From the NCBI GenBank assembly GCA_045106235.1, contig JBGCEJ010000010.1:72991-136990 (forward strand): a stretch of DNA of 64,000 bases, read 5' to 3'. The notes below the pieces were generated by a model, which was not told the origin of the DNA, ran no database searches, and saw only the letters and a list, made by a program, of their open reading frames with translations. This DNA comes from Myxococcota bacterium (GTDB lineage Bacteria > Myxococcota_A > UBA9160 > UBA4427). Within the stretch, counting starts at the first letter, position 1, and each line of letters starts with the position of its first letter. This document shows, one piece after another, positions 15,120 through 32,628 of this stretch. Position numbers and translations under genes: made by a program.

Positions 15120-15366
15120 CAGGCGGCTCCGCTATTCGTGACGACGGCCAAATCGCTCCGAGGGAGCGGGATTGCCAGTCGCGACGATCTTAAAAAATTC
15201 GTTTTGAAGGCCCCGCACGCGCCCAACCGAGGGCGACGCAGAAGAGGGCTTCTCCGCTATTCGCGGATTCATCGGCCAGGCAACCGCTAAAGAAAAGACT
15301 TTCCTCAAGACTGCCTCTGCATTCACCGCAACAGATCCAGGGGTCTCTTTGACCCGTGGAGTCTTC

Positions 15367-18300
15367 ATGTCGGGTGCGCGTCGATTTTTCGGTTTTCTGC
15401 TGCTTTCGTTTCTGCTCGGCTGCAGTCCAAGCGATGTCGGAAATCAATCCGGATCAGGTCCGACCGCGATCGCTGCGGCGGTGGGCGTCGGTGCGGAGAC
15501 GGGAGGCGCCTACCAGGTTCGCGCCGGCTCGGAAGTCGTTGTTTCGGGCAAGGACAGCGAAGGCGGGGGTGCGCCGATCCTGGAATACGAATGGAGCCAA
15601 GTCTCCGGAACATCGGTCGATCTCTTCGAGCGCACCAATATTAGTCGCTCCTTTACCGCGCCTTCCGTTGAGGACACGCTCGTATTCGAGTTGACTGTGA
15701 CGGACTCCAAGGGAAAGACCTTCGTCGATACGGTGGAAGTCGACGTGGTGCCCGTGCTGGATGACGGGAAATTCCTTCGCGATCCAAGTGTCGAGGAGGA
15801 GATCTTCTTTTTCATCTCGCCGAACTCTCCGCCGGCGACGGTGGCCGCGACGATTCCCTATTCGCTGACCGTACAGCCGATTGTTTATTGGACGGACCGC
15901 AGCGGCGGCGCTCGGTCCCAGGTTTTGGCTTCGGTCCTCGAAGTTTCGGATCAAATCGAGGCGGGTTTTACCGTCCCCGGAGATCCGGTTGACTCGACGC
16001 AGGATCGATTCGTTCTGGCCCTCCCGTTACTTGATGCCGACGAAGTCAATGTCTTCTTTCAAGATGCGCTGCGCGCGGGGCGCCTGGAACTCGAAGAAGT
16101 TCCGAACGCCCGAGTTGAACTCGAAGTTGCGCTCGTGGGCAGCGGCGATTTTGAGGTCTACGTCGGCCGGTCGGATTCTGGAAGCTACGCGCTGATCGAG
16201 GGCGCGGATATCGTGGCAAGCGGGGAAACCCCGACCGCCGCGGGCGGGATCCTGGAGGGATCGGACGGCGAGGTTCGACTTGAACTCGAAGCGCTCCGTC
16301 AAGAACTGGGCGTCGAGTCGCGGCGCTCCGCTTCGAACTACTACGACTGCATCGATCCCGCAGCTGAGGCGGCCACGCTTTCCGGCTGGCTGACGGCGAC
16401 GGGATTCGATGGCGCAACCGATGTCACGAACGCGAAATACGTGAACAACTACGATCTCGGTTTCGGGCGCGATATGTACATGCGGGACGACGGCGCCGGG
16501 AATGTCTATAGCTACGTTGTGAACTATCCCAGCCTAGAACAGCTCCTTAAAGGGCAGGGCGAGTTCGCGACGGTGGCGATGGAGTTTAGTCCGAAGCCCG
16601 AGGGCAGCTGCGATGCGCCGACGTTCAGCGCCACGGAGAAGATTGTTAAGTTCTATGCCTTTGTGCCGGATACCACGACCGGGGAGATGGTTCGTGCCGA
16701 GAGCATGAATTTCGATGGTCGCGGGGAGCGTTTCATGCCGGGCGTCTGCACCGCCTGCCATGACGGGAGCATTACGAATATTGCGGCCTTAGGTCAGTCG
16801 GATCTCTCTCTGATCTCGGCCGAGAATGCCGACCTGGCCGCGACGTTTATGCCCTGGGATCTTGATTCGCTGCTCTTTGCCGAAGCGGAAGACGAGGCGT
16901 TGGTCGACCCCGATCTGAATCCGGATGAATTCACGACGGCAGAGCTTGCTGCGGTCTCCTATGAGAGTCAGCAGGCAGCCTTGCGCTCCCTGAATGAGGC
17001 CTCGCTTCTCACCTACCAGGGAGATCTTCGCCGCTACGAAGAGCCGCTGCGAATGATTCACGGTTGGTATGGAAATGAAGCCGCGCTGCCGGCGCCGATC
17101 GTGGACGACCCGATGACGGCGGAGGATGAGACGGACGATCTCTTGGTTCCGAGTCCTCTGGAAAGCGCTTCTGAAGCGACACTCACGACGCTTCCCGCGG
17201 TGGCTTTTGATGGCAGCTATGTCCAGCCGGGATGGGCCGGCGAGGAGGCGCTCTACGAGGAGGTCTACTCGCGCTATTGCCGCATGTGCCATACGCAGCA
17301 GGATAATCTCGACAAGAATTTTGAGTCCTACGATGAATTCGTCGAGGCTGCGGCGCTCTCGGATTTCGTTTTCGTACGCGGTGTGATGCCGGCGGCGCGA
17401 CTGACCCTCGACCGGTTCTGGGTCGATTTTGCGGGCTCGGATCCCTCCGCCGCGGAAATGTTGCGGGACCATTTGATCGGGGAGGGGGTTGACCTTGCCG
17501 CCGATGCTGTGCCGGGGCAGCCTGTGGCGCAGGCGACGGTGACCCCAACCAGTGTCGATGCGGTGGACGGCGCGGGGGATCTCGTTTCGACGACGATCAA
17601 CCTGGATGGCTCCGGGAGTCTCTTTGCCGAGTCTTACGCTTGGAGCGTGACTGACGATTCGGGCTGCGGCGGCAGTCCCCTGATTGCCGGGTCTTCAAGC
17701 GCCCAGGCGTCTTTCGCCGTTGATACTTCGCCCTGCGAATACACGGTCACGCTTGAAGTCGACTCCGGGATTGCGACCTCGGAGAGCGAGACGTTGGTGA
17801 CGACGAACCGAACGCCCGTCACGAATAATTTCACGGCTTCGCTTTCGGGGTACACGCCCGGGGACGCGACGGTCGATGTGGATGTCTTTGCACAGCTGCC
17901 GTCGAATGCTCTGGGCGATGGGGATCTGGTACTCGGGCTGAACGATCCGGATCCGCCCTTCAACCTCGTGGTGAACGCGAATGCGTCTGAGGTTTCAGAC
18001 GGCGTCATCCGCTTGGTTCTCGACTCGCGTCTCGGCGGTACGATGGATTCAGTCCAGTATCAGCTAGTGGATGCGAACGGGACCCTGGCTGAATCGATTG
18101 GCGTGGTCAGCGTTGACGTGGACGCGATCGCGCCTGTGCTTTCGACGACGGGCGGCTCTTTGACGGAATCGTCGGTGACGATTGAATGGAGCGTGCCGTC
18201 GGGATTCGTCGCGGATGATTACTCGGTCCTTCGTGATGGACCGTCTCCGGACGGCAATTTTGGCGTCATCGCAACGACTGCGTCGCTGAACTACGCCGAT

Positions 18301-19170
18301 TCATCCCTCTCGAGTGGCGAAAGCTACGAATACCGCGTTGCGGCGAACCTCGACGGAGAGTCGGCCAATTCGAACGATCTCGCGGTTTCGACGGCGGTCG
18401 GGGTGCCCTCAGGCCTGATGGGGGGAGTGACGACTTCCAGCGTTTCTCTGTCCTGGACCGCAGGCCCCGGCAGCGCGCCGGACGGCTATACGGTGTACCG
18501 GGACAATGCGTTTCTCGGGACAACGACCGGCTCGGGGATGACCGCCTACGTTGACTCCAGCGTTTCGCAAAATACATCCTATTCCTACGAGGTCTCGCAG
18601 ACGCGCAACGGCGTCGAGTCGGGGCGTTCGACGGCAGCGGCGATGACGACGAATACCGCGCCGGCGACGGGCTTTTCGGCGAGCCCTGATTTCGGGACGA
18701 GTGATGCGATTGATCTGGCTTGGTCCGCGCCGGCGGGCGGGACGGCCCCTTCGAACTACCGCATCTACCGCGGAGGAGCCCTGATTCGAACCCAGAGTGG
18801 TCTCACCTATACCGATACGGGACTGGACTCCCAGACAAGCTATTCCTACGAAGTCGCTGCGGTGGGCGCGAACGGGGAGTCGACGCGTGTTTCGGATTCA
18901 GCGACGACGAATCCGTCGCTGCCAGATCTCGTGGCGGTTGCCGGAAGTAGTTCTGCCACGCAGCAATCCGGCACTTATCCCAACGGCTGTTTGAATTCGG
19001 GCTGTCATCTGGGCGCGTCCAATTCGGAAATGGCGGGTCGCTTCGCGACTCCCTGCGCTTCCGACGATCTCGATATGGGCGACTGCACGTCGTCGATGAG
19101 CGGAGTGAGTATCAACTCCGCCTTCAGAGACCTCATCCTCTTCTGGATCGCCGCCGGCGAACCGGACTGA
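15367..19170 (+). CDS. large secreted lipoprotein with PKD-like and Fn3 domains and two CXXCH haem-c-like motifs
   Basis: Lipobox is LLSFLLGC. PKD-like segments include ILEYEWSQVSG...FELTVTDSKG and YAWSVTDDSG...VTLEVDSG. Three Fn3-like repeats include SVTIEWSVP...YEYRVAA, SVSLSWTAG...YSYEVSQ and IDLAWSAP...YSYEVAA. CTACH lies at 16747-16761 and CRMCH at 17278-17292, each followed ~35-45 aa later by Met-Pro. Confidence 0.8.
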   Translation: MSGARRFFGFLLLSFLLGCSPSDVGNQSGSGPTAIAAAVGVGAETGGAYQVRAGSEVVVSGKDSEGGGAPILEYEWSQVSGTSVDLFERTNISRSFTAPSVEDTLVFELTVTDSKGKTFVDTVEVDVVPVLDDGKFLRDPSVEEEIFFFISPNSPPATVAATIPYSLTVQPIVYWTDRSGGARSQVLASVLEVSDQIEAGFTVPGDPVDSTQDRFVLALPLLDADEVNVFFQDALRAGRLELEEVPNARVELEVALVGSGDFEVYVGRSDSGSYALIEGADIVASGETPTAAGGILEGSDGEVRLELEALRQELGVESRRSASNYYDCIDPAAEAATLSGWLTATGFDGATDVTNAKYVNNYDLGFGRDMYMRDDGAGNVYSYVVNYPSLEQLLKGQGEFATVAMEFSPKPEGSCDAPTFSATEKIVKFYAFVPDTTTGEMVRAESMNFDGRGERFMPGVCTACHDGSITNIAALGQSDLSLISAENADLAATFMPWDLDSLLFAEAEDEALVDPDLNPDEFTTAELAAVSYESQQAALRSLNEASLLTYQGDLRRYEEPLRMIHGWYGNEAALPAPIVDDPMTAEDETDDLLVPSPLESASEATLTTLPAVAFDGSYVQPGWAGEEALYEEVYSRYCRMCHTQQDNLDKNFESYDEFVEAAALSDFVFVRGVMPAARLTLDRFWVDFAGSDPSAAEMLRDHLIGEGVDLAADAVPGQPVAQATVTPTSVDAVDGAGDLVSTTINLDGSGSLFAESYAWSVTDDSGCGGSPLIAGSSSAQASFAVDTSPCEYTVTLEVDSGIATSESETLVTTNRTPVTNNFTASLSGYTPGDATVDVDVFAQLPSNALGDGDLVLGLNDPDPPFNLVVNANASEVSDGVIRLVLDSRLGGTMDSVQYQLVDANGTLAESIGVVSVDVDAIAPVLSTTGGSLTESSVTIEWSVPSGFVADDYSVLRDGPSPDGNFGVIATTASLNYADSSLSSGESYEYRVAANLDGESANSNDLAVSTAVGVPSGLMGGVTTSSVSLSWTAGPGSAPDGYTVYRDNAFLGTTTGSGMTAYVDSSVSQNTSYSYEVSQTRNGVESGRSTAAAMTTNTAPATGFSASPDFGTSDAIDLAWSAPAGGTAPSNYRIYRGGALIRTQSGLTYTDTGLDSQTSYSYEVAAVGANGESTRVSDSATTNPSLPDLVAVAGSSSATQQSGTYPNGCLNSGCHLGASNSEMAGRFATPCASDDLDMGDCTSSMSGVSINSAFRDLILFWIAAGEPD

Positions 19171-19192: not shown

Positions 19193-20842
19193 ATGAAAAT
19201 CGCGAACGAACAAGGTCGATCGATGGGGAAGCGCACCGGAGTGGGGGGTATGGTCAGTATGCTCTGCGCGTTCACTTTCGGATGTGCCTCGCCTGTGACG
19301 GATCACCCGGAATTTGACCTGAGTCGGGAACTCTCGGAGCTCGATGTGGTGGACTGCGTGGTCGAAGGCGCTGTTCGCCAGGTCGGCCGCAGCTTCGCCT
19401 ATCAAGAGCAGCCGCGTATGGCTCGGGTGACCGAGTTCGAGTGTGCTTCGATGGGGGGCACATTTGTCGCCTACGATGCCACGCGGCCGGACGCCGTCAT
19501 GGAGAAATGGTTGTCGTTCGCCGAGGGGGGTGATCCCGACGCGCAGCATCGTCTTGGCCTTCTCTATGAAGGCGCGATGGGGGCCGCTCCGGACTACAAG
19601 AAGGCGGCCTACTGGTACGGCCAGGCGGCGGATTCGGGGCATCGCGGAGCGATGTCTTCCCTGAGCGTGCTCTACGAAAAGGGGCTCGGGGTCGAGAAGG
19701 ACGTGCTGAAGGCGCTGAACCTTTACCGCGAATCTTCAGGGCTCTCGGGCGATAGCCTCATGCTTTCTTCGACTGCCTATGCCGAAATTGAAGAGGCGAA
19801 GGGCGAGCTCACGGACGAAATCGGGATGCTCCGGACTCAGCGCGAAGCGCTGACGGCGCAGGTTTCGGCTTTGACCCGCTCCTCCGCTTCCCGAGATGCG
19901 GCGAGTGCCAAGAAGGTCAAAGCGCTCCAGTCTCTTGTTTCGGATCTCAACCAGAAAGTCTCGAAGAAGGAAGAAGTGCTCGTCGCGATGCCTTCTTACA
20001 GATTGCTGCAGCGCGATGCGAATCCGTCGCGGGTGACGGAGTTTGATTTCCCGAAGTTGCCGACCAAGAAGCTTGGGAAGCGAACGGTCGGCCAGTTCTA
20101 CGCTCTGGTGATCGGGAATACGAAATACGAAAAGATGCCGGATCTCCAGACCCCGCGGAATGATGCGGAAGTGATCGCATCGCTTCTGACGAATCGGTTT
20201 GGGTTTTCGACGCAGCTTCTCCTCGATGCCAATGAGGAAGAAATTAAGCGCGCGATTCATAAACTGAACGGCGTGGCCGGAGAGAAAGATAATATTCTGC
20301 TCTACTTCGCCGGTCATGGACATCGCAAGAAGGGGACGGATCGGGCTCGCTTAAATGGGTATTGGCTGCCGACGAACGCGGACCAAGACCAGGACGTGAA
20401 CTGGGTCGATAATTGGTGGGTGACGAATCACCTGGACACCTCCATCGCCAAGCGCGCGCTCGTGATCGCGGATTCCTGCTACGGCGGCGTCTTCTCGACG
20501 GATCTTCCGATTGGTCCGGTGACGCAGCTTCCGCCGCTCGGTGAAGCCGATTTTGAAAAGAAGCTCGAACGAAAGAGCCGCTTCGTCTTGGCCTCGGGTG
20601 GCGAGCAGCCCGTTCTGGATGCGACGGGTCCGGGCTCGGAACATTCCGTTTTTGCGGGGGCCTTGATTGAGGTGCTGCAGCAGAGCGAAGGCCCCATGTC
20701 CGTCGTTGAGCTGTACGGGCGGGTGTTTGACCGGATGTACGATGCGCTCAAGTCGACGGGGATTAAGCAAGAGCCGGAGCTGCGCGTGATCCGCGCGGCC
20801 GGCCATCAGAGCGAGGGCGACTTTTTCTTCGTCGCGAACTAG
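19193..20842 (+). CDS. lipoprotein with Sel1/TPR repeats, a coiled coil and a caspase-like (peptidase C14) domain
   Basis: Lipobox is LCAFTFGC. Sel1 repeats include AQHRLGLLYEGAMG...YKKAAYWYGQAADSGH and AMSSLSVLYEKGLGV. The caspase His/Cys dyad contexts are LLYFAGHGH and LVIADSCYGG. The gene starts 22 nt after the preceding gene. Confidence 0.85.
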   Translation: MKIANEQGRSMGKRTGVGGMVSMLCAFTFGCASPVTDHPEFDLSRELSELDVVDCVVEGAVRQVGRSFAYQEQPRMARVTEFECASMGGTFVAYDATRPDAVMEKWLSFAEGGDPDAQHRLGLLYEGAMGAAPDYKKAAYWYGQAADSGHRGAMSSLSVLYEKGLGVEKDVLKALNLYRESSGLSGDSLMLSSTAYAEIEEAKGELTDEIGMLRTQREALTAQVSALTRSSASRDAASAKKVKALQSLVSDLNQKVSKKEEVLVAMPSYRLLQRDANPSRVTEFDFPKLPTKKLGKRTVGQFYALVIGNTKYEKMPDLQTPRNDAEVIASLLTNRFGFSTQLLLDANEEEIKRAIHKLNGVAGEKDNILLYFAGHGHRKKGTDRARLNGYWLPTNADQDQDVNWVDNWWVTNHLDTSIAKRALVIADSCYGGVFSTDLPIGPVTQLPPLGEADFEKKLERKSRFVLASGGEQPVLDATGPGSEHSVFAGALIEVLQQSEGPMSVVELYGRVFDRMYDALKSTGIKQEPELRVIRAAGHQSEGDFFFVAN

Positions 20843-20912: not shown

Positions 20913-21359
20913 ATGGAAACGAACGATGTGGTGGCAGATTTTCGTGCCCAAAATCAGGACGGCAAAGAGGTGAGCCTCTCCGGGCTGCTAGAGGGTGGCC
21001 CCCTTGTGCTCTTCTTCTATCCGAAGGCGATGACCCCGGGTTGAACGCGCGAAAGCTGTCATTTCCGCGATTTGGCCGCTGAGTTCGAGGAACTCGGTGC
21101 TCAGCGCGTGGGGATCAGCGCCGATCCGGTGGATCGGCAAAAAGCGTTCGACGACAAAAATGGTTTGGGCTTTCCGCTGCTTTCGGACCCAGGTCGCGAG
21201 GTCGCGAAGCTTTTCGGGGTGAAGCGGTTCGGTCCACTCCCGAGCAAGCGAGCGAGTTTTGTGATCGATACGGACCGGAAGGTCCTGGGTGTGATCCGAA
21301 GCGAGATGGACATGGACGGACACGCGGATCAGGCGCTTTCGATTTTGAAGTCGCGCTAG
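20913..21359 (+). CDS. bcp: Bcp/PrxQ-type peroxiredoxin with in-frame TGA (candidate selenocysteine) at the peroxidatic Cys position
   Basis: ORFs 20856..21044 and 21072..21359 are in the same frame, separated only by TGA at 21042-21044. The joined sequence reads FFYPKAMTPG-U-TRESCHFRD, matching the Bcp motif PGCTxExC with the resolving Cys kept 5 residues downstream. ATG at 20913 follows GGAGGGA. Confidence 0.75.
21048..21069 (+). promoter_or_regulatory. candidate SECIS-like hairpin downstream of the peroxiredoxin UGA
   Basis: CGCGAAAG / loop CUGUCA / UUUCCGCG gives 7 pairs plus one A-C mismatch. The apical loop contains GU about 17 nt from the UGA. Confidence 0.4.
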
Positions 21360-21412: not shown

Positions 21413-21697
21413 CTAGTCTTCTGACTGGACGACCACGACCACGTCGCGAATCTCGGGGGCTTGGTCCGCGAGCATATCCTTCATCATGCCGGCCAGCGCA
21501 TTGGGCTCCATGATGCATTCCACGCATTGTTCATTCACGCCCTTGGCGTAGGCGACGCTGAGCTGATCGCCCTCGATTCGAAGCAGGGACACGCTGCCGC
21601 CGTCGGGTTTTACGATTTCGTCGAAGGCTTCGATCACGGCCTGGACGGCGGGGTTGACGGGGGGGAGGGCTGATGTCTCGGTCGCGGACGCACTCAT
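21413..21697 (-). CDS. NifU-like (Nfu-type) CxxC domain protein
   Basis: 94 aa. It has a KPDGGSVSLL...segment followed by QCVECIM (CxxC), as in NifU C-terminal domains. The start overlaps the upstream stop (ATGA at 21694-21697). Confidence 0.7.
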   Translation of the reverse strand: MSASATETSALPPVNPAVQAVIEAFDEIVKPDGGSVSLLRIEGDQLSVAYAKGVNEQCVECIMEPNALAGMMKDMLADQAPEIRDVVVVVQSED

Positions 21698-22260
21698 CGA
21701 TCGGCTCCGGTTTTTCCGCAGAGGCGTTCGATCACCGTTGGCGCGACCGCTTCAGCGAGGTTTTGGATCTCGGAATCGCTCCACATCGCAGTGGGGATCC
21801 AAGGGTAGTCGACGACCACGAAATCGTAGTCGGGATGTCCTGAGAGTCGCGCCATGGACTGGGCTGATCCGCGGACGGCTTCATGAATGATCGGGACAGC
21901 GGCAATGCCGGCCCACTCGAGTTCGATTGCGTCGCGCAAACTGCGCGCACTGCAGGAGCCTCAACCCCCGAAGCCGGTAATCGCGACCGAGACCTCCGAA
22001 GTGAGGCGCGCCCAGTCTGTGGGTTCCGGGGGGACGGAGACGCCGGCTTTAAGGACGTGGACCGAGGCGCTCGGGTTGGCCCGTCGCTCGATTTCGTCGC
22101 CGAGGGCGAGCATGAAATCTTCGCTGCGCCCGAGGCCGTTGGTCACGAGGCCGATCACTTGGCCGTCAAGGCTTGCGGGCCGGGAAGCCAGTTCGCGGTC
22201 GCCTTTGCGTTGGAGTGGTCCGCTTGTCGGATCGAGTCCGATGAGACTTTTTTGCGTCAT
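21694..22260 (-). CDS. UGSC-motif protein with in-frame TGA (candidate selenoprotein)
   Basis: Minus-strand ORFs 21961..22260 and 21694..21939 share one frame. The only interruption is TGA at 21963-21961. Read-through gives ...AITGFGG-U-GSC-SARSLRDAIELEW (a U-x-x-C redox motif). There is no SD before the TTG that opens the second ORF. GAAGGAG precedes ATG 22260. Confidence 0.7.
21931..21950 (-). promoter_or_regulatory. candidate SECIS hairpin downstream of the UGSC-gene UGA
   Basis: On the minus strand, 10 nt after the UGA: GU(G)CGCGCA / loop GUU / UGCGCGAC. This is an 8-bp GC-rich stem with one bulged G and G/U in the apical loop. Confidence 0.5.
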
Positions 22261-22306
22261 TCGAGCGCTCCTTCTGAGGTCGGCAGAGTCGGTGGGCTAT
22301 TCGGTG

Positions 22307-23287
22307 TTAGGCCGGGTCGATGTGTTGTGTGATGGCCCAGGCGAGATGAGGGAAGAAGATCCAGGTTGAGGCCATGCCGCGGCCGCCGGCGGCCACCAAT
22401 AGGAAACCTTCGGGGCCGGCGACGGAGACGGGGCGTTGGCCGGGCCCGGGATTGCGGCTCTTTTCGAAGAGGCGCTCGCGGATTTGAGTCTTGCTCCAGC
22501 CGGCTTCGAGGAAGAAGCGCTGATGCTCGGGACCGATCACCATCAGGACCGTGCCGTGTTCGAGGAAACGGTCCGCATAGACGCCCTTGCGCATTAACTC
22601 GTCGAGCCAAACATCACAGATGGCTTCCGGACTTCGGCTCTCGAAGTCGGCGACCTCGGCGACGCTCATTGCGGAATGGACGGTGACCGCGCTTTGGTCC
22701 CGACGGAGTCCTCGGTCGACATGGAGCGGTGTCCAGTCGCTTGCCGCCTCGTTTTCGCCGAAGCAGAAGGAGTAGCGGAACGGGCTCGCGAAGCTCGCGC
22801 GATCGAGAAAGCCTGGAATCGCTCGGCACACGTTTCGGATGACGAGGCGAAGCGCGCGGCCGATCGTGGCATTCGCGCGAAAGCCGGGTCCGAAGCAGCC
22901 TTCGCCGCATTCGATGTCGATCTCGTCTCGAACCGGTCCATTGACGACGACGATTTGCGAAGCGCCCGAGAGGGTGCCCGTGGTGCTATGGCAATTGCCT
23001 TTCTCGTGAAGGTGAGCGCGAACGGCGGCGACGACGATGGGGAAATAGCTGGGACGGCATCCGGCCATTACGGCGTTGATCGCCGCTTGTTCCGCGGTCA
23101 CCACGACTTCGCGGGTGGCGACTTCGCCGAGGATGGCATCCGGAGCGAGTCCGGCGACTGCGAGGAAGGCCTCGACTGCCTCGGGTGTGGGGGGCACGAT
23201 CGGAAGCCCGTCGGTCCAGCCGCGGGCGTCGTAGTCTTCGGCCAGGGCCGCATAGTCTTCGTAGGCGTGGCGTTCAGCGTTCAGCAT
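22307..23287 (-). CDS. conserved hypothetical protein (no family recognised)
   Basis: Long open frame with normal composition. ATG at 23287 was chosen because the 23383 start would overlap the upstream gene. Cys-rich core is HEKGNCHSTTG...IECGEGCFGPGFRAN. It lies 46 nt upstream of the UGSC gene. Confidence 0.6.
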   Translation of the reverse strand: MLNAERHAYEDYAALAEDYDARGWTDGLPIVPPTPEAVEAFLAVAGLAPDAILGEVATREVVVTAEQAAINAVMAGCRPSYFPIVVAAVRAHLHEKGNCHSTTGTLSGASQIVVVNGPVRDEIDIECGEGCFGPGFRANATIGRALRLVIRNVCRAIPGFLDRASFASPFRYSFCFGENEAASDWTPLHVDRGLRRDQSAVTVHSAMSVAEVADFESRSPEAICDVWLDELMRKGVYADRFLEHGTVLMVIGPEHQRFFLEAGWSKTQIRERLFEKSRNPGPGQRPVSVAGPEGFLLVAAGGRGMASTWIFFPHLAWAITQHIDPA

Positions 23288-23342
23288 CACCCCAAACGGT
23301 ACACCTCGGATTCGCCGCCCGCATGGGCCTTCCTGAGGGCCT

Positions 23343-24260
23343 CTACAGCTCGAGTTTGAAATGCTTAAGGGGATCGCCGGCATCTCCAGCCGGTGCCGGC
23401 AAGATCTGGCGCAGATGATCGCCTAATTTCCAGCCCCGCCTTATCTCGCGTTCTTTCCATTGGTCGGGGTATCCGAGGGAAACCTCCTCGAAGCGCACGT
23501 CGTCGATATACCGGGTGCAGGGGATATGGAGATGCCCGGAAATAACGACTCGCGCGCCGAATCGCGTATGCCAATCCTCGGTTCGTCGCGTGCCGCACCA
23601 GACCATGAAGCGCGGAATCAGGGGCAGGACCGCAAGTTCCTGGCGAAGCGGGAAGTGGGCGATCAGTATGGTGGGCAGTGGATTCTCAGCGAGCGCCGCG
23701 TCGAGCCGGGCTTCGCTTTCCTGGCAGCGGGCTGCGCACCACGCTCCAAAGTCCGGATAGGGCTCGGGCTTGATCAAGAGCTCGTCCGAGCACATCAGAT
23801 CCTTCTCACGCGCCCAGGCAACTGCGTCTTCAATCGGAACATCGTCCGGCCTAAAGCTGTAATCGTAAAAGAGGAAGAGCGGGGCGAGCAAATGTCGGCC
23901 GCCTTCTCCTTCCCAAACGGGGAAAGGGTCCTCGGGCGAGAGGACGCCGTATTCGCGGCAGATCTCGACGAGCTGGGTGTAGCGAGCGACGCCGCGCTTT
24001 CCTTCTTTGCGCGGGACGGTCCAAAGTTCGTGATTGCCCGGGACCCAGATCAGTTGCGCGAACTTTGCGTTCAGGACCTGGAAAGCAGTCCGAAGCTGGT
24101 CGGGTGTATCCGCGATATCGCCGCAGAGGATCAACCAGTCCTCAGGATGATCGGGGATCTCGGTGAGCGCGACGAGATTGGGCTTGAAGCCGACATGGAG
24201 GTCGCTGATGGCATGAAGCTTCACTAAGGGGCCTTTCGAAGTCGCTGCGGAGCGCATCAT
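23343..24260 (-). CDS. calcineurin-like metallophosphoesterase
   Basis: AISDLHVG, LCGDIADT, VPGNHELW and ISGHLHIP are the MPE metal-binding motifs. The internal ATG at 24260 gives a standard N-terminus. Confidence 0.8.
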   Translation of the reverse strand: MMRSAATSKGPLVKLHAISDLHVGFKPNLVALTEIPDHPEDWLILCGDIADTPDQLRTAFQVLNAKFAQLIWVPGNHELWTVPRKEGKRGVARYTQLVEICREYGVLSPEDPFPVWEGEGGRHLLAPLFLFYDYSFRPDDVPIEDAVAWAREKDLMCSDELLIKPEPYPDFGAWCAARCQESEARLDAALAENPLPTILIAHFPLRQELAVLPLIPRFMVWCGTRRTEDWHTRFGARVVISGHLHIPCTRYIDDVRFEEVSLGYPDQWKEREIRRGWKLGDHLRQILPAPAGDAGDPLKHFKLEL

Positions 24261-25257: not shown

Positions 25258-25623
25258 ATGGATGCAGATCGGATTGTTCGAGACTTTTGTGCGGCCTGGG
25301 GTCGGGCCGACCTCGACGGGATCATGTCCGCCTTCGCTGAGGACGCGGTCTATCACAATATTCCGATGGACCCCTGCAAGGGCAAAGACGCCATTCGCGG
25401 GTTCATAGAGGGCTTTCTCAAGACGAGCCCGGGTGGGATCGATTTCGAGATCCTGAATCAGTCCGTCGCAGGCTCCGTCGTCTTGAACGAGCGGGTCGAC
25501 ACGTTTTCGATGGACGGCGCCCCAAAAGGGATTCCGGTCTGTGGCGTTTTTGAGCTGAACGCGGACGGTGAGATCGCCGCCTGGCGCGACTATTTTGATA
25601 TGGGCGCTTTCCAGGGGAACTAA
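25258..25623 (+). CDS. limonene-1,2-epoxide hydrolase/SnoaL-like NTF2-fold protein
   Basis: 121 aa. IVRDFCAAWGRADLDGIMSAFAEDAVYHNIPMDP and LNERVDTF...WRDYFD are typical of the LEH family. GAGGAG RBS. Confidence 0.75.
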   Translation: MDADRIVRDFCAAWGRADLDGIMSAFAEDAVYHNIPMDPCKGKDAIRGFIEGFLKTSPGGIDFEILNQSVAGSVVLNERVDTFSMDGAPKGIPVCGVFELNADGEIAAWRDYFDMGAFQGN

Positions 25624-25688: not shown

Positions 25689-26933
25689 ATGCTGGCCTTG
25701 GCCTATGCGCTGAACTTTATTGATCGGCAAATCTTGGTCATCGTGCAGGAGCCGCTCAAGGCGGAGATGGGGCTCTCGGATACCCAACTGGGCTGGCTGA
25801 GCGGCTTTGCCTTCGCCGTCGTGTATATCACCGCGGGAATTCCGATTGCTTATATGGCGGATCGGAAGAACCGCCGGAATATCATTGGCGCCGCGGTCAC
25901 GGTCTGGAGCGGCATGACCGCGATCTCCGGGCTAGCGCAAAACTTCACGCAGCTTCTACTCGCTCGGATTGGCGTGGGAATTGGCGAGGCGGGCGGAAGT
26001 CCCCCGGCGCACTCGATGATCAGCGACTACTACCCGCCCGAAGAGCGCTCGGGCGCTCTCGCGATTTATTCTTCGGGGCTGCATTTCGGGATTTTTCTTG
26101 GCTTTCTGCTTGGCGGGGTGATCACCGAGGCGCTGGGTTGGCGCGCGGCGTTTATGGCGGTGGGCCTCCCGGGCATTCTGTTTTCTCTGATCTTCGTGCT
26201 CACCGTGCGGGAGCCCCTTCGCGGCCGCTGGGAGACACAGGAGGCGGCGGCCTACACGCCGACGCTGGGAGAGACGCTGCGACTCCTGATGCGCTTCAAG
26301 ACGTTTTGGTACATCGCGATGGGCTGCGGTCTAACGGCCTTCGCGGGTTACGGCGGCGGCAATTTCGCACCTTCATTTTTGCAGCGCAGTCACGGAATGA
26401 CTCTCGGCGATGCGGGCGTTGTGATGGCGATCGTGGCGGGCGGGTCGGGATTGCTGGGAACGCTGCTCGGGGGGAAGCTCGGGGATCGGCTGGGGCCCCG
26501 GGACCCGCGCTGGTATGTCTGGATCCCGATGATCGCGGGCTTTATCGCGGTTCCGCTGAGCTTTCCTTACCTCTTGCTCGATGACACGCGGGTCGTGGTC
26601 GTGCTGCTTTTCTTTGTCAGCATGGCGATCAACACGTATCTCGGGCCATGCCTTTCGGTCGTGCATGGACTCGTTCCGCCATCGATGCGGGCGCTGGCTT
26701 CGGCGGTGATGTTCTTCGTGCTGAACCTGGTGGGGCTCGGGCTCGGGCCGCTCACGGCAGGCATCTTGAGCGACTATTTTACCGGGATCTACGGGGCGGA
26801 TGGGCTGCGTTATGCGATCTTGATCGTCGGCATGATTGCCGGGATCGGCGTGCTGTTTTTCTTTCTCGCCGCGCGCAGCCTGAAAGAAGATATGGCCGCG
26901 AGCGAAGCCTTTATTCGCGAATCCGCGGGGTAG
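25689..26933 (+). CDS. MFS transporter (spinster-like subgroup)
   Basis: 12 predicted TM helices, NFIDRQIL after TM1 and MADRKNRRN (motif A). The true start is probably upstream of ATG 25689 (see findings). Confidence 0.85.
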   Translation: MLALAYALNFIDRQILVIVQEPLKAEMGLSDTQLGWLSGFAFAVVYITAGIPIAYMADRKNRRNIIGAAVTVWSGMTAISGLAQNFTQLLLARIGVGIGEAGGSPPAHSMISDYYPPEERSGALAIYSSGLHFGIFLGFLLGGVITEALGWRAAFMAVGLPGILFSLIFVLTVREPLRGRWETQEAAAYTPTLGETLRLLMRFKTFWYIAMGCGLTAFAGYGGGNFAPSFLQRSHGMTLGDAGVVMAIVAGGSGLLGTLLGGKLGDRLGPRDPRWYVWIPMIAGFIAVPLSFPYLLLDDTRVVVVLLFFVSMAINTYLGPCLSVVHGLVPPSMRALASAVMFFVLNLVGLGLGPLTAGILSDYFTGIYGADGLRYAILIVGMIAGIGVLFFFLAARSLKEDMAASEAFIRESAG

Positions 26934-27035: not shown

Positions 27036-29411
27036 CTAGAGCCCTTTGGGCTTTGTGCCGATCACTTCGTCCTCGGCGAGCTTCGCGATTTCTGCTTCCG
27101 AGAGGCCCATCTCCGTTAGAAGTTCATGGTTATGCTCGCCCATCTTGGGGGCGGGAGTACGGTTCCATCGATCGATCGTCGCGAATTTGAAGGGCGGTCG
27201 GCAGTAGCCGTGGGTTCCGACGACGGGATGCTCGAGGTCCTCGTAGAATCCGCGTGCAGCAAATTGGGGATGCTTGCTTTGAATGCGCGCGTCCCAAACC
27301 CCGGCGGCGGGGATTCCGCGCGCGACAAGGGCCGAGACGGCATGGTCGAGTTCCTGGCCCGCGGCCCAGGAGGCCACTTTTTCGTCGATGACCTGATGCT
27401 TGCGGCGCCGCCCAGCCTGGGTGGCGAATTCCGCGTCTTCGGCCCAGGTTGGATTTCCCAGCTCGGCCTTGAGTGCGTCCCACTCCGCATCGTCCCGCAC
27501 GCATAACGCCAGCCAATTCTCCTCACCGGCGCACGCATATACATTCTGAGGTGCACCCTCCGGTCCTCGGTTGCCGTCGCGAGCGAGTTCGACGCCGTAG
27601 GCGGACCATTCTATGCCCATTTCGGCGGCGGCATTGAGCGCACCTTCGATCATGGTGCATTCGAGGAGATGACCCTTACCCGTCTTCTCGCGTTCGGCGA
27701 GGGCGACGAGTGTGGCGAACGCCGCATGCATGCCGGCGAGGGGGTCGCAGGGGCCGCGCTGGATCCGAGGCTGATCGTCGGCGTGGCCGGTCATCCAGGC
27801 GAGGCCGGACATCTGCTCCATGGTCTGGGCGAAGCCAACGTTGTCTCGCCAGGGACCGGAGAGGCCGAAGGCGGGCATGCGAACGACGATGGTCGAGGGG
27901 CTGATGGCCTGAATTCCTTCCCAGTCGAGGCCGAATCCTTCGACGACGCGGGGAGAGAAGTTCTCGATGAAGACATCGCAGGATTCGATGAGCTTTTTGC
28001 AGAGATCGAGGCCAACGGGATCGGCGAGGTTGAGGGTTAGGCCGCGCTTATTCGTATTGGCGGCGAGGGTGATTGCGGAACGTTCCCACCAATCGCCTTC
28101 CGCGAAGAAGAGGCCACCTGCCATCCGCATGCCGTCGGGGCGCTGGATGGCTTCAACCTTGATCACGTCGGCGCCGAGATAGGCGAGCATCTGGCAAGCG
28201 CTCGGACCGGCCCACCACGCCGTCGTGTCGAGCACGCGAATGCCTTCGAGCGGCAACTTGACCTTTCCGACTTTGGAGGGAGCGATGCCGGGGACTTGAC
28301 GGGTTCGTTTGGCTTCGGCCGCGATCTCCTTGTTATGTTCTCCTACGCTCGGGACGGCCTCGAAGGGGCGCGGCCCTTCGTTGTCCATGAGGTAGGGCGG
28401 GCGCGGCTGAAGGAAGCCGCCGGTGGGGTTCTTCTTGAAGACGCCTCGATCTTGAAGGTGGACCTCGTCGAAGACTGTTCGGCCGCTGTTTACGGGCGCG
28501 ACGGGGATTCGAAGGAGCGAGGCGCGTTCGACGATCTCCGCCGTCGTATGCTGTGTTGTCCAGGCGCGGACGATCTCGTTCCATTCATCCATTTTCGCCA
28601 TGCGCGTCATCATCTGCGCCCACTCGGGTTCTTCGAGTAGATCGACGCGCTCAAGGAGCAGCAGGAAATCGGTGAACTGCTGGTTCGAGTTGGTGTTGAA
28701 CCCGACCCAGCCATCCTTCGTGGGTTCGATTGACGGCACTTCGACGGAGCGCGGGCCGCCGAGGGGCTCGGGGCGGCCATTCATGCTGTCCATGAAATCG
28801 AGATAGGTCGTCGAGCCGATATTCATCACTTCGCAAAGTGAAAAGTCGACCTGTTCCCCTTGACCCGTCTTCTGGGCATGGCGCGCTGCGGCGAGGCCCG
28901 CGACCGCGGCGAAGGTGCCGCCGATCCATTCCGTAATTCGACCGCCACACATAATCGGCGGCTGGGTCTGGAGTCCGCGCACGGAAATGGCGCCGCTATG
29001 CGCCTGGACGGTTAAGTCCGAGGCGGGCGCATTCGAGATTGGTCCGCCGCGCCCGTAGGGGCTGATGCTAAGAACAACGAGTCCGGGGAAGCGTTCGGCG
29101 GGATCGAGGGCGTCCATGACGCCGGGCTCGAAGGTTTCCACGACGAGGTCCGCGCCTTCCATCAGTTCGAGAATATGCGGGTCGTCGGGGCGCCCGACCA
29201 CGGACTTTTTCGACGTATTCAAGAACTGGAAGAGGGCAGAGTCCTTGCCTTCGAGATCGGTGTCGCTGGCGGTCCAGCTGCGCAGGGGATCGCCCTCGGG
29301 CGGCTCAACCTTGATGACTTCGGCATAGGCATCGGCCATCAGCTTCGTCGCATAGGCGCCCGCGATTCGGTTGCTGAAGTCGATGACGCGCAAATTGCGT
29401 AGTCCCTGCAT
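27036..29411 (-). CDS. tandem-fused family III CoA-transferase (two CaiB/BaiF modules in one chain)
   Basis: Module 1 has LRVIDFSNRIAGAYATKLMADAYAEVIKVE. Module 2 has IRVLDTTAWWAGPSACQMLAYLGADVIKVE. Each is followed by a ...TG(Q/K)G...(D/E) segment. Confidence 0.85.
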   Translation of the reverse strand: MQGLRNLRVIDFSNRIAGAYATKLMADAYAEVIKVEPPEGDPLRSWTASDTDLEGKDSALFQFLNTSKKSVVGRPDDPHILELMEGADLVVETFEPGVMDALDPAERFPGLVVLSISPYGRGGPISNAPASDLTVQAHSGAISVRGLQTQPPIMCGGRITEWIGGTFAAVAGLAAARHAQKTGQGEQVDFSLCEVMNIGSTTYLDFMDSMNGRPEPLGGPRSVEVPSIEPTKDGWVGFNTNSNQQFTDFLLLLERVDLLEEPEWAQMMTRMAKMDEWNEIVRAWTTQHTTAEIVERASLLRIPVAPVNSGRTVFDEVHLQDRGVFKKNPTGGFLQPRPPYLMDNEGPRPFEAVPSVGEHNKEIAAEAKRTRQVPGIAPSKVGKVKLPLEGIRVLDTTAWWAGPSACQMLAYLGADVIKVEAIQRPDGMRMAGGLFFAEGDWWERSAITLAANTNKRGLTLNLADPVGLDLCKKLIESCDVFIENFSPRVVEGFGLDWEGIQAISPSTIVVRMPAFGLSGPWRDNVGFAQTMEQMSGLAWMTGHADDQPRIQRGPCDPLAGMHAAFATLVALAEREKTGKGHLLECTMIEGALNAAAEMGIEWSAYGVELARDGNRGPEGAPQNVYACAGEENWLALCVRDDAEWDALKAELGNPTWAEDAEFATQAGRRRKHQVIDEKVASWAAGQELDHAVSALVARGIPAAGVWDARIQSKHPQFAARGFYEDLEHPVVGTHGYCRPPFKFATIDRWNRTPAPKMGEHNHELLTEMGLSEAEIAKLAEDEVIGTKPKGL

Positions 29412-29647
29412 AGGTCACTCCCTGCCAGGGGCGGCTTTGGCACGCCCAGGGCATCTCGAAGCCGCGGAGGCGGCGCTCGCGGTCATTATAGGTCGCGAAA
29501 TCTGCTCAGGTCGAGGCCTCTTTCCCGCGATCGGTGGTGAAAAACATCCCGCCGCGCCCGGCTTCATTCGTTTATCATCAAGGGGCGCGGTCCCGGGCCA
29601 CCGGTCCCGCGCGAAACACATGTTCGAGACAGATCAAGGAGAGGCCC

Positions 29648-31858
29648 ATGCCCGAGGTGCACGATTCTTTTTGTCGGTTCTGCCACGCGTCCTGCGCGAT
29701 AAAGGTCACCGTCGAAGACGGGCGTCCCGTCTCGGTCATCGGCGCAAAGGATAATCCGGTCTACCACGGATACACCTGCGCCAAGGGACGCGCGCTCCCC
29801 GAACAGCATGCGAATCCCCACCGTCTGCTTCACACCTTGAAACGCGGCGAGGACGGGAAGCATCACCCCATTCCCGTCGAGCAAGCCATGGATGAAATCG
29901 CCGAACGCGTATCCGTGATTGTCGAAAAGCACGGTCCGCGCTCGGTCGCTCTCTATACAGGGACTTATTCCCTGCCGTATCCCGCTGCGGCACCTCTGGC
30001 GAATGCCTGGCTCACTTCCCTCGGCTCGCCCATGTCGTTCACGAGCGCGACGATCGATCAGCCGGGGAAGATGATTGGGGCTGCGCTTCATGGGACTTGG
30101 GGCGGGGGTGCCTATGATTTTGATCACGCCGATGTCTGGATGTTAGTCGGTGCGAATCCGACGATCTCAAAGTCGATCGGGATCCCCTGCATGAACCCCG
30201 CGAAGCATCTCCATGACGCGGTCAAGCGCGGCATTCAGCTGGTGGTGATCGACCCGCGGCGCAGCGAGGTGGCGAAGGTGGCCGATGTCCATTTGCAGCC
30301 GAAGCCGGGTGAGGATCCGACGATTCTGGCGGGCATGATTCGCGTGATCCTGGAAGAAGGACTCGGCGACAAAGAGTTCGTGGCCGCGTACGCCGAGGGC
30401 GTCGAGTCGCTTCGCGAAGCGGTGGCGCCTTTTACCCCTGAATATGTGGCGCAGCGCGCGGAAGTGCCGGCGGAGGACATTGTAAAGGCAGGCCGTATCT
30501 TTGCCGAGTCGCGCAATGGCGGGGCGAACGTGGGGACAGGGCCGAATATGGCGCCGCGAGGAAACCTCACGGAATACCTCGTGCTGGCGATGAACACGCT
30601 CTGCGGACATTGGCGTCGGGCGGGCGAAGCGATTCCGAGTCCGGGCGTGTTGATGGCGCCGCTTAAGTCGGTCGCCGAGCCGTCGGCGCCGACCCCGGGA
30701 TGGGGCTTTGGCGAATCGATTCGGGTGCGTGGTCTCACGAATACCGCGGCGGGACTGCCAACGGCCGCTCTGGCGGACGAGATCCTCTTGCCGGGCGAGG
30801 GCCAGGTGAAGGCGCTGTTTAGTCTGGGCGGAAATCCGATGGCGGCCTGGCCCGATCAGGACAAGACGATGGCGGCCATGGACGCGCTCGATCTGAACGT
30901 CACGGTGGATATCAAGATGTCCGCGACAGCGAAGGTCGCGGATTACGTGATCGCGCCGAAGCTCTCGCTTGAGGTGGAGAGCATGACCCTGCCGACGGAA
31001 TCGCTCACGCCCTATGCCATGGGCTATCCCGTTCCCTACGCACAGTATTCGAAAGCCGTCGTTGATCCGCCGGAGGGATCCGACGTGATCGAGGAATGGG
31101 AGTTCTTCTATGGCTTGGCGCAGCGGATGAATCTGCCGCTCACGCTTGCCGCAGCGTACGCCTGGGGGCCGCATTCGGCGGAGCCCGAGCTAACCGAGCT
31201 CGATTTGGAGAACAAACCGTCAAACGATGAACTCTTCGAGGCGCTGACGAAGGGGTCCAAGGTGCCGCTTTCGGAGGTGAAAAAATATCCGGAGGGTCAG
31301 ATCTTTGAGGATCCATCGGCCCGCGTCGAAGCGGGGGACCCACAGAAGGAAGACCGCCTTCAGCTGGCGGATCCGACTCTCCTCGCGGAGCTGCGCGACG
31401 TGGCAGCGGAGTCGCTTGAGCGCGACGCAGCGTTTGCGTTTCAACTCGTGAGCCGAAGGCTACCGGATGTGCATAACTCCGCGGGCCGAGATATTCCGAA
31501 GCTCGTCCGCAAGTACACCTACAACCCCGCCTTTATGAATCCCGCCGATGTCGAGAAGTTGGGTCTTCAGGATGGCGACCTGATTGAGATCACCTCGCGT
31601 CATTCATCGATTCTCGGAGTCGTCGAGAGCGAAGCCGCGATTCGAACAGGGGTGGTCTCTATGCCGCATTGTTTTGGTGATGTGCCGGGGGATGGGGCAG
31701 ACCAGAAAGTACGCGAGGTGGGGAGCAATACCGGGCGCCTCTCAAGCGTGGAGCGCGAGATCGATCCCTATAGCGGGATCCCGCGCATGAGCGCGATTCC
31801 GGTGAACGTCGAACGATATATTGAACCCGCTTCGATCGCGGGCGGAGGGGGCGCATGA
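29648..31858 (+). CDS. molybdopterin (bis-MGD) oxidoreductase, cytoplasmic, stand-alone catalytic subunit
   Basis: N-terminal 4Fe-4S motif is CRFCHASCAIKV...YTCAKG (C-x2-C-x3-C...C). Length ~736 aa. No Tat/Sec signal. AGGAGAGG RBS before ATG 29648. Confidence 0.85.
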   Translation: MPEVHDSFCRFCHASCAIKVTVEDGRPVSVIGAKDNPVYHGYTCAKGRALPEQHANPHRLLHTLKRGEDGKHHPIPVEQAMDEIAERVSVIVEKHGPRSVALYTGTYSLPYPAAAPLANAWLTSLGSPMSFTSATIDQPGKMIGAALHGTWGGGAYDFDHADVWMLVGANPTISKSIGIPCMNPAKHLHDAVKRGIQLVVIDPRRSEVAKVADVHLQPKPGEDPTILAGMIRVILEEGLGDKEFVAAYAEGVESLREAVAPFTPEYVAQRAEVPAEDIVKAGRIFAESRNGGANVGTGPNMAPRGNLTEYLVLAMNTLCGHWRRAGEAIPSPGVLMAPLKSVAEPSAPTPGWGFGESIRVRGLTNTAAGLPTAALADEILLPGEGQVKALFSLGGNPMAAWPDQDKTMAAMDALDLNVTVDIKMSATAKVADYVIAPKLSLEVESMTLPTESLTPYAMGYPVPYAQYSKAVVDPPEGSDVIEEWEFFYGLAQRMNLPLTLAAAYAWGPHSAEPELTELDLENKPSNDELFEALTKGSKVPLSEVKKYPEGQIFEDPSARVEAGDPQKEDRLQLADPTLLAELRDVAAESLERDAAFAFQLVSRRLPDVHNSAGRDIPKLVRKYTYNPAFMNPADVEKLGLQDGDLIEITSRHSSILGVVESEAAIRTGVVSMPHCFGDVPGDGADQKVREVGSNTGRLSSVEREIDPYSGIPRMSAIPVNVERYIEPASIAGGGGA

Positions 31859-32628
31859 GTGTTTTAGATCTTTCAGGCCGTGGTGCGTTAGTCGTGGGCG
31901 GTGGGCAGGGGATCGGTCGCGCGACGGCCCTGATGTTGGCGGCGGCGGGCGCGAATCCGGTCGTCCTTGATGCCGAGCAGGGCCGCGCCGAGTCGGTGGC
32001 GGCCGAAATCGAAGCCCTCGGTCGGAAGACCGCTGCGCTTTCGGCGGACGTGACGGATGAGTCGCAGGTGCAGGGCGCGATTGACGCCGCGGGGCAGGCG
32101 GTGGGTGGTTTGGACTGCGTGGTCAATATCGTCGGCTCGGCTTCCTGGGCGCCGCTGCTTAGCGTGGACGACGCGACTTGGGAGCGCGACTTCGACGTGA
32201 ACCTCAAACATCACCTCTACGTCGGGCGTTCTGCGGCGCGGCATTGGATCGACGCGGATCGGCCCGGCGCCCTTTGTGTCGTCGCCTCGATCTCGGGGCG
32301 CTTTTCGTCCGCAGCCCACGGCGCCTACGGGGCAGCAAAGGCGGGCGTGATGAATTTTGTTCAGAGCGCTGCACAAGAATGGTGGCCTCACGGTATCCGT
32401 GTGAATGCGGTCGCGCCGGGAGCGGTGCGGACGCCGCGGATCGAGGCTTCCTGGGCGGATGGCTCAGTCCCCATGCCGACGGCGGATCTCATGGGGCGCC
32501 TCGCGCTACCTGAGGATATCGCGGGGGCAATCACATTCTTGGTCTCGGATCTTTCTGCGAAGATCACGGGCCAGACCGTGGTGGTCGACGGGGGATGGAC
32601 CACGCGGTTCCCCTACGAGCTCAGCTAG
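31855..32628 (+). CDS. short-chain dehydrogenase/reductase (SDR)
   Basis: VVGGGQGIG cofactor loop and YGAAK (YxxxK). ATGA overlap with the Mo enzyme. Confidence 0.85.
   Translation: MSVLDLSGRGALVVGGGQGIGRATALMLAAAGANPVVLDAEQGRAESVAAEIEALGRKTAALSADVTDESQVQGAIDAAGQAVGGLDCVVNIVGSASWAPLLSVDDATWERDFDVNLKHHLYVGRSAARHWIDADRPGALCVVASISGRFSSAAHGAYGAAKAGVMNFVQSAAQEWWPHGIRVNAVAPGAVRTPRIEASWADGSVPMPTADLMGRLALPEDIAGAITFLVSDLSAKITGQTVVVDGGWTTRFPYELS

Follow-up and report, generated by a model that had tools for sequence, protein, structure and literature searches.

Selenoproteins of the UGSC-containing family were described by Zhang and Gladyshev in 2007/2008 (PMC1976440, PMC2398784). They are among the most abundant selenoproteins in Global Ocean Sampling (GOS) samples, where selenocysteine (Sec) forms outnumber cysteine forms by 255 to 21, a pattern in common with PrdB and SelW (PMC2398784). 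This excess of Sec over Cys forms is rare, and suggests that Sec acts directly in the chemistry rather than as a mere electron shuttle. Papers from 2007, 2008, 2022 and 2026 all give the function of UGSC as unknown (2026 review, PMC13188914). Here we analyze a family member encoded in a 64,000-nucleotide stretch of Myxococcota DNA (the window: contig JBGCEJ010000010.1, positions 72,991 to 136,990), together with two partners: P327, a protein of 326 residues, and a small NifU-like protein with a CxxC motif.

These three proteins are the conserved unit, and the window locus is a typical Sec-type member of the system, from Myxococcota. With slightly better than even confidence, we propose that the trio is a three-part, thioredoxin-fed thiol/selenol enzyme system that reduces a small carboxylate.

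The nearest parallels are the glycine, sarcosine and betaine reductases (GrdA/B/E) and D-proline reductase (PrdA/B). In those enzymes a UxxC selenoprotein works with a substrate-binding subunit, as UGSC would with P327; the substrates are small carboxylates, as proposed for the trio; thioredoxin reductase and thioredoxin are encoded in the same operon, as trxB, with or without trxA, is in some cultured relatives (Arthrobacter, Roseovarius, and Variovorax) but not in the window; and in both cases Sec forms outnumber Cys forms. However, the trio shows no sign of a pyruvoyl-forming proprotein or of protein-C-like genes, and its hosts are for the most part not Stickland fermenters but aerobic heterotrophs. 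An early suspicion that UGSC is related to GrdB/PrdB was dropped. None of 22 UGSC and 34 P327 sequences matched GRDB (PF07355) or Gly_reductase in hmmscan at E<=10 (HMMER filters hide very weak matches), and no such structure appeared among the Foldseek matches; homology to GrdB/PrdB is therefore not claimed.

MsrA/B, ArsC of the low-molecular-weight protein tyrosine phosphatase type, and 3'-phosphoadenosine-5'-phosphosulfate (PAPS) reductase offer a second parallel. The proposed logic is alike: a catalytic and a resolving Cys (C77 and C175 of P327), served by a CxxC/UxxC chain from thioredoxin reductase (TrxB) and NADPH. P327 has no detectable similarity to these enzymes in sequence or fold, however, and the trio would have a dedicated, flavodoxin-like Sec carrier, whereas they use thioredoxin directly. 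The third component shares with Nfu/NifU C-terminal proteins (PF01106) its domain and a CxxC at the same position. It differs from them in that the match is marginal; the module belongs here to a thiol/selenol system, fused to UGSC or P327 in relatives; and no Fe-S assembly genes lie in the neighbourhood.

With the UGSC family (PF24696, NF041046) the window protein shares the domain, the U-G-S-C motif, and interchange of Sec and Cys. To this known family the present work adds the partner P327, a recurrent CxxC third component, operons with thioredoxin-system genes, and a predicted flavodoxin-like fold. Full-text literature searches found no paper with the P327 partnership, the three-module architecture, the thioredoxin-system operons or a flavodoxin-like UGSC fold, and the UGSC-P327 partnership is essentially undescribed. 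A supplementary figure of the 2008 GOS paper mentions a "UGSC/Unknown_1 fusion" (PMC2398784). This "Unknown_1" domain is probably P327.

Conservation of the trio

The features of the locus, in window coordinates, are:

20913-21359, plus strand: convergent peroxiredoxin gene of the PrxQ/BCP type (bcp; AhpC-TSA), with an in-frame TGA at 21042-21044
21413-21697, minus strand: gene for the NifU-like (Nfu C-terminal domain-like) protein, 94-aa product, PF01106 with CxxC
21694-22260, minus strand: candidate selenoprotein gene of the UGSC family (PF24696), 188 codons plus stop
21929-21950, minus strand: candidate bacterial selenocysteine insertion sequence (SECIS) hairpin, starting 10 nt past the UGA
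21961-21963, minus strand: in-frame TGA, candidate Sec codon, residue 100 of UGSC
22307-23287, minus strand: P327 gene, 326-aa product without a Pfam or NCBIfam match
23343-24260, minus strand: calcineurin-like metallophosphoesterase gene (PF00149, 55.8 bits against a gathering score of 21.5, E 1e-14)

The four minus-strand open reading frames are real, at the coordinates given by the sequence-only reading with which this work began. That reading had also noted three features that are indeed present: the ATGA in which the UGSC stop codon overlaps the NifU-like start codon; the 53 nt between the 3' end of the minus-strand gene set and the bcp stop codon; and two candidate Sec codons within ~1 kb, the UGSC and bcp TGAs lying ~920 nt apart. 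Gene spacing suggests that the minus-strand genes form an operon: 55 nt separate metallophosphoesterase from P327, and 46 nt, including a ribosome-binding site (GAAGGAG), separate P327 from UGSC. A promoter and terminator scan of the locus was uninformative, and single-sequence folding of the intergenic region gave the same result as shuffles in this GC-rich DNA. The Rfam scan of the window matched no family; a window-wide scan for other TGA-interrupted genes was too noisy for use.

Conservation was assessed by tblastn with the window proteins in 80 UGSC-seeded loci, taken from genomes of GTDB species representatives that span Myxococcota, Acidimicrobiia, Chloroflexota, and Pseudomonadota. About 35 loci of the set are near-identical loci from sponge symbionts. 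A P327 homologue accompanies UGSC in all 80 loci, adjacent and on the same strand in 79; in the other (L065) it lies 2.3 kb away on the opposite strand. UGSC is likewise adjacent or fused in 14 of 15 P327-seeded plasmid or chromid loci, haloarchaea included. Gene order follows the Sec/Cys state: P327 precedes UGSC in Sec forms, whereas UGSC precedes P327 in 14 of the 15 Cys forms. In most of these Cys-form pairs the NifU-like gene comes next.

The NifU-like module, located with a hidden Markov model (HMM), stands beside or is fused to the UGSC-P327 pair in 28 of 88 loci or, after collapse at 78% identity, in 18 of 33 non-redundant lineages. These are Myxococcota, one gammaproteobacterial metagenome-assembled genome (MAG), Burkholderiales, Nocardioides, and Cys-type actinobacterial lineages. 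Gene calls guided by third-position GC content (GC3), taking two genes on each side of the 33 non-redundant loci, revealed no conserved flanking family apart from NifU, found 8 times. Family III CoA-transferases, luciferase-like monooxygenases and MFS transporters follow with 5 occurrences each, then SDR, amidohydrolase 2, IclR, and MarR with 4 each.

Fusions tie the modules together. HMMs made for the modules identified these architectures among 438 collected proteins:

UGSC-P327: 91 of 438
P327-UGSC: 5 of 438
P327-NifU-like: 9 of 438
UGSC-P327-NifU-like: 6 of 438
NifU-like-UGSC-P327: 1 of 438
NifU-like-P327: 1 of 438
P327-P327: 8 of 438
N-terminal extension of ~100 aa (Trx-like in the members scanned) followed by P327: 20 of 438

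Fusions among UGSC (U), P327 (P), NifU-like (N), and thioredoxin-like (Trx) modules thus occur in most orders: U-P, P-U, P-N, U-P-N, N-U-P, and Trx-P. The Trx-like domain fused to P327 has a CxxC motif and matches TIGR01068 (E 1e-6), and in one case a Sec-form UGSC gene lies downstream of a Trx-P327 gene. In Arthrobacter the protein labelled "UGSC" is itself a UGSC-NifU (U-N) fusion, with a PF01106 score of 27.2 bits. These fusions indicate that P327, UGSC and the NifU-like protein act as one functional unit.

The association of UGSC with the other two proteins, predicted by the sequence-only reading, is therefore strongly upheld by synteny and fusions. The same reading had counted the metallophosphoesterase and the convergent Sec-peroxiredoxin as parts of the module. 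Among the 80 loci, L001 alone has their homologues beside the pair; this closest relative comes from a Myxococcota MAG that is 85-89% identical. In the other 79, bcp is not beside the pair, and the metallophosphoesterase is not among the recurrent flanking families. Both are lineage-specific neighbours outside the conserved module, and the conserved unit is the trio, not four genes plus bcp.

Two haloarchaeal plasmids show a variant arrangement, in which two P327 paralogues flank one UGSC: Halorientalis litorea (L102, 3319-5981) and Halalkalicoccus jeotgali plasmid 2 (L097, 4953-7652). This suggests a heteromeric enzyme. The Halorientalis operon also encodes an LLM oxidoreductase, CoA transferase, CoA ester lyase, DUF6282 protein, and TAXI-TRAP binding protein; in the vicinity of the Halalkalicoccus genes are a divergent CoA transferase and a TRAP permease. 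Divergent UGSC-P327 fusions, whose UGSC part scores about at the gathering threshold, lie beside aconitase X and DUF126 in two unrelated bacteria: Vibrio europaeus (pVEu; L089, 3001-7008) and Sporomusa termitida (pSPTER; L091, 1851-7005). The aconitase X region is followed by an enolase paralogue in Vibrio, and by an FAD-dependent oxidoreductase and an MFS transporter in Sporomusa.

Sec codon, folds and conserved residues

The sequence-only reading treated the UGSC protein as unknown; it belongs to a named family, PF24696/NF041046. The PF24696 score is 133.5 bits (cut-off 25), and residues 9-181 cover profile positions 3-171 of 172. Against NF041046 the window protein (with U changed to C at residue 100) scores 76 bits (E 3e-21), short of the equivalog cut-off of 125 bits, and fusion UGSC members of other lineages also fall under it, at 108-116 bits. 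Judged by these profile scores, membership is at the domain level, not the NCBI equivalog level.

The motif reads GFGG-U-GSCS, with Sec at residue 100 and the resolving Cys at 103. It aligns with GFGG-C-GSCS of homologues, and conservation continues downstream of the TGA. Database homologues are of two sorts: full-length proteins with GFGG-C-GSCS, and fragments of ~105 aa that stop exactly at GFGG. In the 80 genome loci this column is encoded by TGA in 65 and by a Cys codon in 15. The candidate SECIS, GUGCGCGCA-GUU-UGCGCG-A-CGC, forms a stem of 9 bp with a single bulged A and a loop of three nucleotides that begins with G (GUU). Over 47 distinct sequences its cells are 99.5% paired, and one pair is compensatory (CG in 29, GC in 18 sequences) through synonymous changes in Ala and Arg codons. 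In controls with the 3' partner slid along, pairing falls to 18-68%. All nine pairs are intact in 64 of 69 Sec-form loci but in only 1 of 20 Cys-form loci, where the peptide is nearly the same. The folding energy of the single sequence is not distinctive against shuffles in this GC-rich DNA (z -0.13). Because the TGA aligns with Cys and the hairpin is both conserved and specific to Sec forms, we take the gene for that of a genuine candidate selenoprotein, as the sequence-only reading had it.

Just 5' of the hairpin, a Ser codon (alignment columns 10-12; window 21957-21955, minus strand) alternates between TCC and AGC along lineage lines, a switch that might reflect a second, lower SECIS helix.

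Neither a tRNA gene (hence no selC) nor a selB-like sequence occurs in the window, in keeping with the earlier statement that selB and selC are missing from it; the search was not aimed at selA or selD. Plasmid pFER4 of Paracoccus ferrooxidans (L090, 5360-12107) carries a Sec-form UGSC with the motif GLAN-U-GSCTS, annotated as two hypothetical proteins, together with P327. Here selB lies 3.3 kb downstream of the pair, and genes for DsrE, TusA, and cysteine desulfurase lie upstream.

The fold of UGSC was approached through a natural triple fusion homologue, P0205, modelled with AlphaFold2 from 64 sequences (pLDDT 90.4, pTM 0.85). In the model the UGSC domain consists of five parallel β-α units. 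The only Foldseek matches for it were flavodoxin-like (probability ~1, target TM score 0.4-0.57, E ~4e-3): the flavodoxin domain of flavodiiron proteins, WrbA, and flavodoxin. UGSC thus models as flavodoxin-like. The thioredoxin fold suggested in 2008 ("likely Trx-like", PMC2398784) was rejected, since AlphaFold2 and Foldseek give flavodoxin-like domains only. The modelled secondary structure places the motif, G-G/D-U/C-G-S-C, where a β-strand gives way to the N-terminal end of a helix, a site that may resemble a nucleophile elbow.

P327 had no match in Pfam or NCBIfam, at loose thresholds too, nor in PADLOC or among PDB sequences, searched with the single sequence and with profiles. Yet the family is large: at E<=1e-3 it has at least 7,792 clusters at 90% identity and 4,658 representatives of 50%-identity clusters, of which 1,005 remain at E<=1e-30. 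Its range includes haloarchaea, Vibrio, Paracoccus, Variovorax, and Sporomusa; none of the relatives has a Pfam domain, and RefSeq labels them "hypothetical protein". The AlphaFold2 model is of good quality by its own measures (pLDDT 87.5, pTM 0.90), and its Foldseek matches in PDB are near noise (E >=2.6e-3, TM score <=0.28). With such scores, class I fumarate hydratase and the Toblerone-fold cyanuric acid hydrolase were rejected as homologues.

Residue conservation, counted over 150 diverse representatives, gives these as the most conserved positions in P327: C77 (95%), C175 (92%), R144 (100%), N139 (99%), E178 (99%), and G143 (99-100%). E180, W185, and D26-G27-x-P29 of the motif G-W-T-D-G-L-P-V-V-P-P-T are conserved also. 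The sequence-only description of the protein as Cys-rich was overstated: there are 7 Cys in 326 residues, and only C77 and C175 are conserved family-wide, the others being subfamily-specific.

The NifU-like protein passes the PF01106 gathering threshold marginally (27.7 bits against 27), and its motif, C58-V-E-C61, is kept in homologues. We propose that it serves as a dithiol relay partner, a role favoured by the Trx-like CxxC domain or thioredoxin that takes the equivalent place in some lineages.

Proposed electron route and its rivals

In the proposed mechanism, P327, which carries the conserved C77/C175 pair, would bind a small anion as its substrate, probably a carboxylic acid or the CoA ester of one. 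The Sec-Gly-Ser-Cys of UGSC, at its strand-to-helix turn, would be a dedicated selenol/thiol reductant or a direct nucleophile, and would finish each turnover as a selenenylsulfide. This would be re-reduced by the NifU-like CxxC protein, elsewhere by thioredoxin or a Trx-like domain, and ultimately by thioredoxin reductase and NADPH. Electrons would accordingly pass from NADPH through TrxB, the thioredoxin, Trx-like or NifU-like CxxC, and UGSC (U100/C103) to P327 (C77/C175). The direction of electron flow, the role of P327 as catalytic subunit, and the substrate class are the parts of this model that we infer.

A redox role, as the sequence-only reading had supposed, is supported by related operons and fusions, which include thioredoxin reductase, thioredoxin, and Trx-like domains. 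Arthrobacter sp. ERGS1:01 has trxB, trxA, P327, and the UGSC-NifU fusion tightly packed in that order; Roseovarius sp. THAF8 has P327, UGSC, and trxB; the locus of Variovorax sp. SRS16 comprises trxB and genes for a TTT binding protein, an SDR protein, P327, and a 169-aa UGSC with CGSC. In V. boronicumulans a 305-aa pyridine-nucleotide-disulfide oxidoreductase (Pyr_redox_2) and a TTT binding protein accompany a UGSC-P327 fusion. Overall, a flavoprotein of the thioredoxin reductase type is present in 4 of the 15 P327-seeded cultured loci, and an operonic trxB, with or without trxA, in 3-4 of 15. The substrate class is suggested by the carboxylate uptake systems that recur near the pairs (MFS, TRAP/TAXI, and TTT). 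Also nearby are family III CoA-transferases, CoA ester lyase (in haloarchaea), aconitase X with DUF126 (in Vibrio and Sporomusa), PrpD, and, in Paraburkholderia, proteins like TcuA/TcuB.

Several observations weigh against this reading. No TrxB homologue was found within ~8-10 kb in 88 MAG loci, nor in the window, and a TrxA search was negative too, so the link to thioredoxin is drawn from 4 of the 15 cultured loci. The HMM search of the 88 loci did not find the NifU-like module in the large Sec-type clades of Acidimicrobiia (the sponge symbiont "Poriferisocius") and Dehalococcoidia. The aconitase X, enolase, CoA ester lyase, and PrpD contexts suit a hydratase or isomerase equally well. Finally, P0256 and P0259 lack the UGSC cysteines yet keep C175 of P327; with such members in the family, UGSC may have a structural or non-redox role too.

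A bolder version of the reductase model, which we regard as possible but rather doubtful, holds that P327 and UGSC, with or without NifU-like or thioredoxin components, form an unrecognized class of thioredoxin-dependent selenoenzyme whose catalytic domain has a new fold. It would perform a reductive step like those of Grd/Prd: formation of a selenoether, then thiol-driven cleavage (for example C-N or C-S cleavage, or ene-reduction), on small carboxylates or CoA esters. Such an enzyme would occur widely among aerobic heterotrophs, whether marine, freshwater, soil, or haloarchaeal, and, if real, would explain the abundance of UGSC in aquatic metagenomes.

The neighbouring genes also invite a non-redox account, to our minds an unlikely one, in which P327-UGSC works without a cofactor as an isomerase, hydratase, or lyase, acting on unsaturated or hydroxy carboxylates or on the corresponding CoA esters. 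Sec and Cys would attack as nucleophiles in Michael additions or serve in acid-base catalysis, as happens in maleate isomerase or the two-Cys racemases, while thioredoxin, the NifU-like protein, and TrxB keep the site reduced. The gene order in the haloarchaeal operons is CoA transferase, CoA ester lyase, P327, UGSC, and a second P327, with no annotated hydratase; in itaconate-type pathways a hydratase fills the slot beside CoA transferase and CoA ester lyase. Aconitase X with DUF126, enolase, and PrpD as neighbours fit as well, as do the placement of the two conserved P327 Cys on different structural elements, the members without a UGSC CxxC, and the weak resemblance of P327 to class I fumarate hydratase and PrpD-like folds, although those Foldseek matches are the near-noise ones (TM score <=0.28). 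However, UxxC is the classic redox-cycling motif, and dedicated trxB, trxA, and Trx-like fusions would be a costly way of simply keeping the site reduced; stoichiometric reductase operons such as grd carry trxB-trxA, and the match to them argues against mere upkeep of the site. A role in Fe-S chemistry, raised by the sequence-only reading, appears quite improbable and found little support. Here the NifU-like protein would carry a cluster, P327 would be an Fe-S enzyme or the trio would assemble or repair clusters, and UGSC would be the reductant or ligand donor. This would fit the NifU domain at gathering threshold with its cluster-binding CxxC, the Fe-S hydro-lyase that is the best (weak) fold match of P327, and the cysteine desulfurase, TusA, and DsrE near the Paracoccus pair. 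But a [4Fe-4S] site would need more than the two Cys conserved family-wide in P327, thioredoxin or a Trx-like CxxC domain substitutes for the NifU-like module in some lineages, about half of the lineages lack that module, and no isc, suf or nif gene is among the 25 most frequent flanking families.

Two further explanations turn on the TGA codons. Two Sec genes within ~1 kb, both with thiol/selenol redox motifs and similarly arranged in L001, might indicate a cluster for defence against peroxide or oxidative stress, the trio working with the convergent Sec-peroxiredoxin. We rate this very improbable: bcp stands beside the pair in that 85-89% identical relative alone (1 of 80 loci), peroxiredoxin/AhpC does not figure in the 25 most frequent flanking families, and contexts elsewhere are catabolic or transport-related. 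That the UGSC TGA is a true stop, in a disrupted gene or between two short ORFs, is barely credible. Gene callers do split the gene in public data, no Sec machinery was found in the window (where tRNA and selB-like sequences were looked for), and the hairpin energy is ordinary for this GC content. Yet TGA falls exactly at the Cys column in 65 of 80 loci from several phyla, with both halves conserved; the hairpin is specific to Sec forms and includes a compensatory change; UGSC is an accepted selenoprotein family; and selB lies 3.3 kb from the Sec-form pair in Paracoccus.

Neighbouring genes and implications

The bcp product fits the Sec-peroxiredoxins of the BCP/PrxQ type ("Prx TxxU", a GOS selenoprotein family; PMC2398784), with the peroxidatic motif T-P-G-U-T-R-E-S-C and a Cys at +5 (PF00578, AhpC-TSA, E 1e-35; NF006960, E 4.5e-27); the in-frame TGA is at the same place in L001. 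It differs in standing here merely as a lineage neighbour of a module to which it does not belong. Directly upstream of bcp is a gene for a 549-aa protein with Sel1 repeats and a caspase domain (Peptidase_C14; 19193-20842, plus strand). Farther along that side of the window are a PKD/fn3 surface protein of 1273 aa (15349-19170), an autotransporter beta-domain protein (13593-15119, minus strand), and a Ser/Thr protein kinase (11502-13502), a group of genes in keeping with a Myxococcota-like genome.

Upstream of the trio, a 791-aa tandem family III CoA-transferase (CaiB/BaiF; 27036-29411, minus strand) is adjoined by an MFS transporter (25689-26933, plus strand) and a SnoaL/limonene-epoxide-hydrolase-like protein (25258-25623, plus strand). 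The transporter and CoA-transferase genes lie 1.4-3 kb upstream; since both families recur near UGSC-P327 pairs elsewhere, they may be functionally linked to the trio. Beyond them is a molybdopterin oxidoreductase with an N-terminal Fe4S4 domain (29534-31858, plus strand), in whose gene no in-frame TGA was seen; its stop codon overlaps the start of an SDR gene (31855-32628, plus strand).

Together, these results place UGSC, which has figured since 2005-2008 in lists of the most abundant aquatic selenoproteins, in a defined enzyme system. The orphan selenoprotein is accompanied by the P327 family, often by a CxxC carrier, and sometimes by its own thioredoxin reductase. Cultured hosts include Arthrobacter, Roseovarius, Variovorax, Paraburkholderia, and haloarchaea for the Cys form, and Paracoccus for the Sec form; the divergent fusions of Vibrio europaeus and Sporomusa are among the tractable ones. 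If the reductase model is true, the trio would represent a new selenium-dependent step in the aerobic catabolism of dissolved organic acids or osmolytes, and P327 a new catalytic fold for thiol/selenol redox enzymology.

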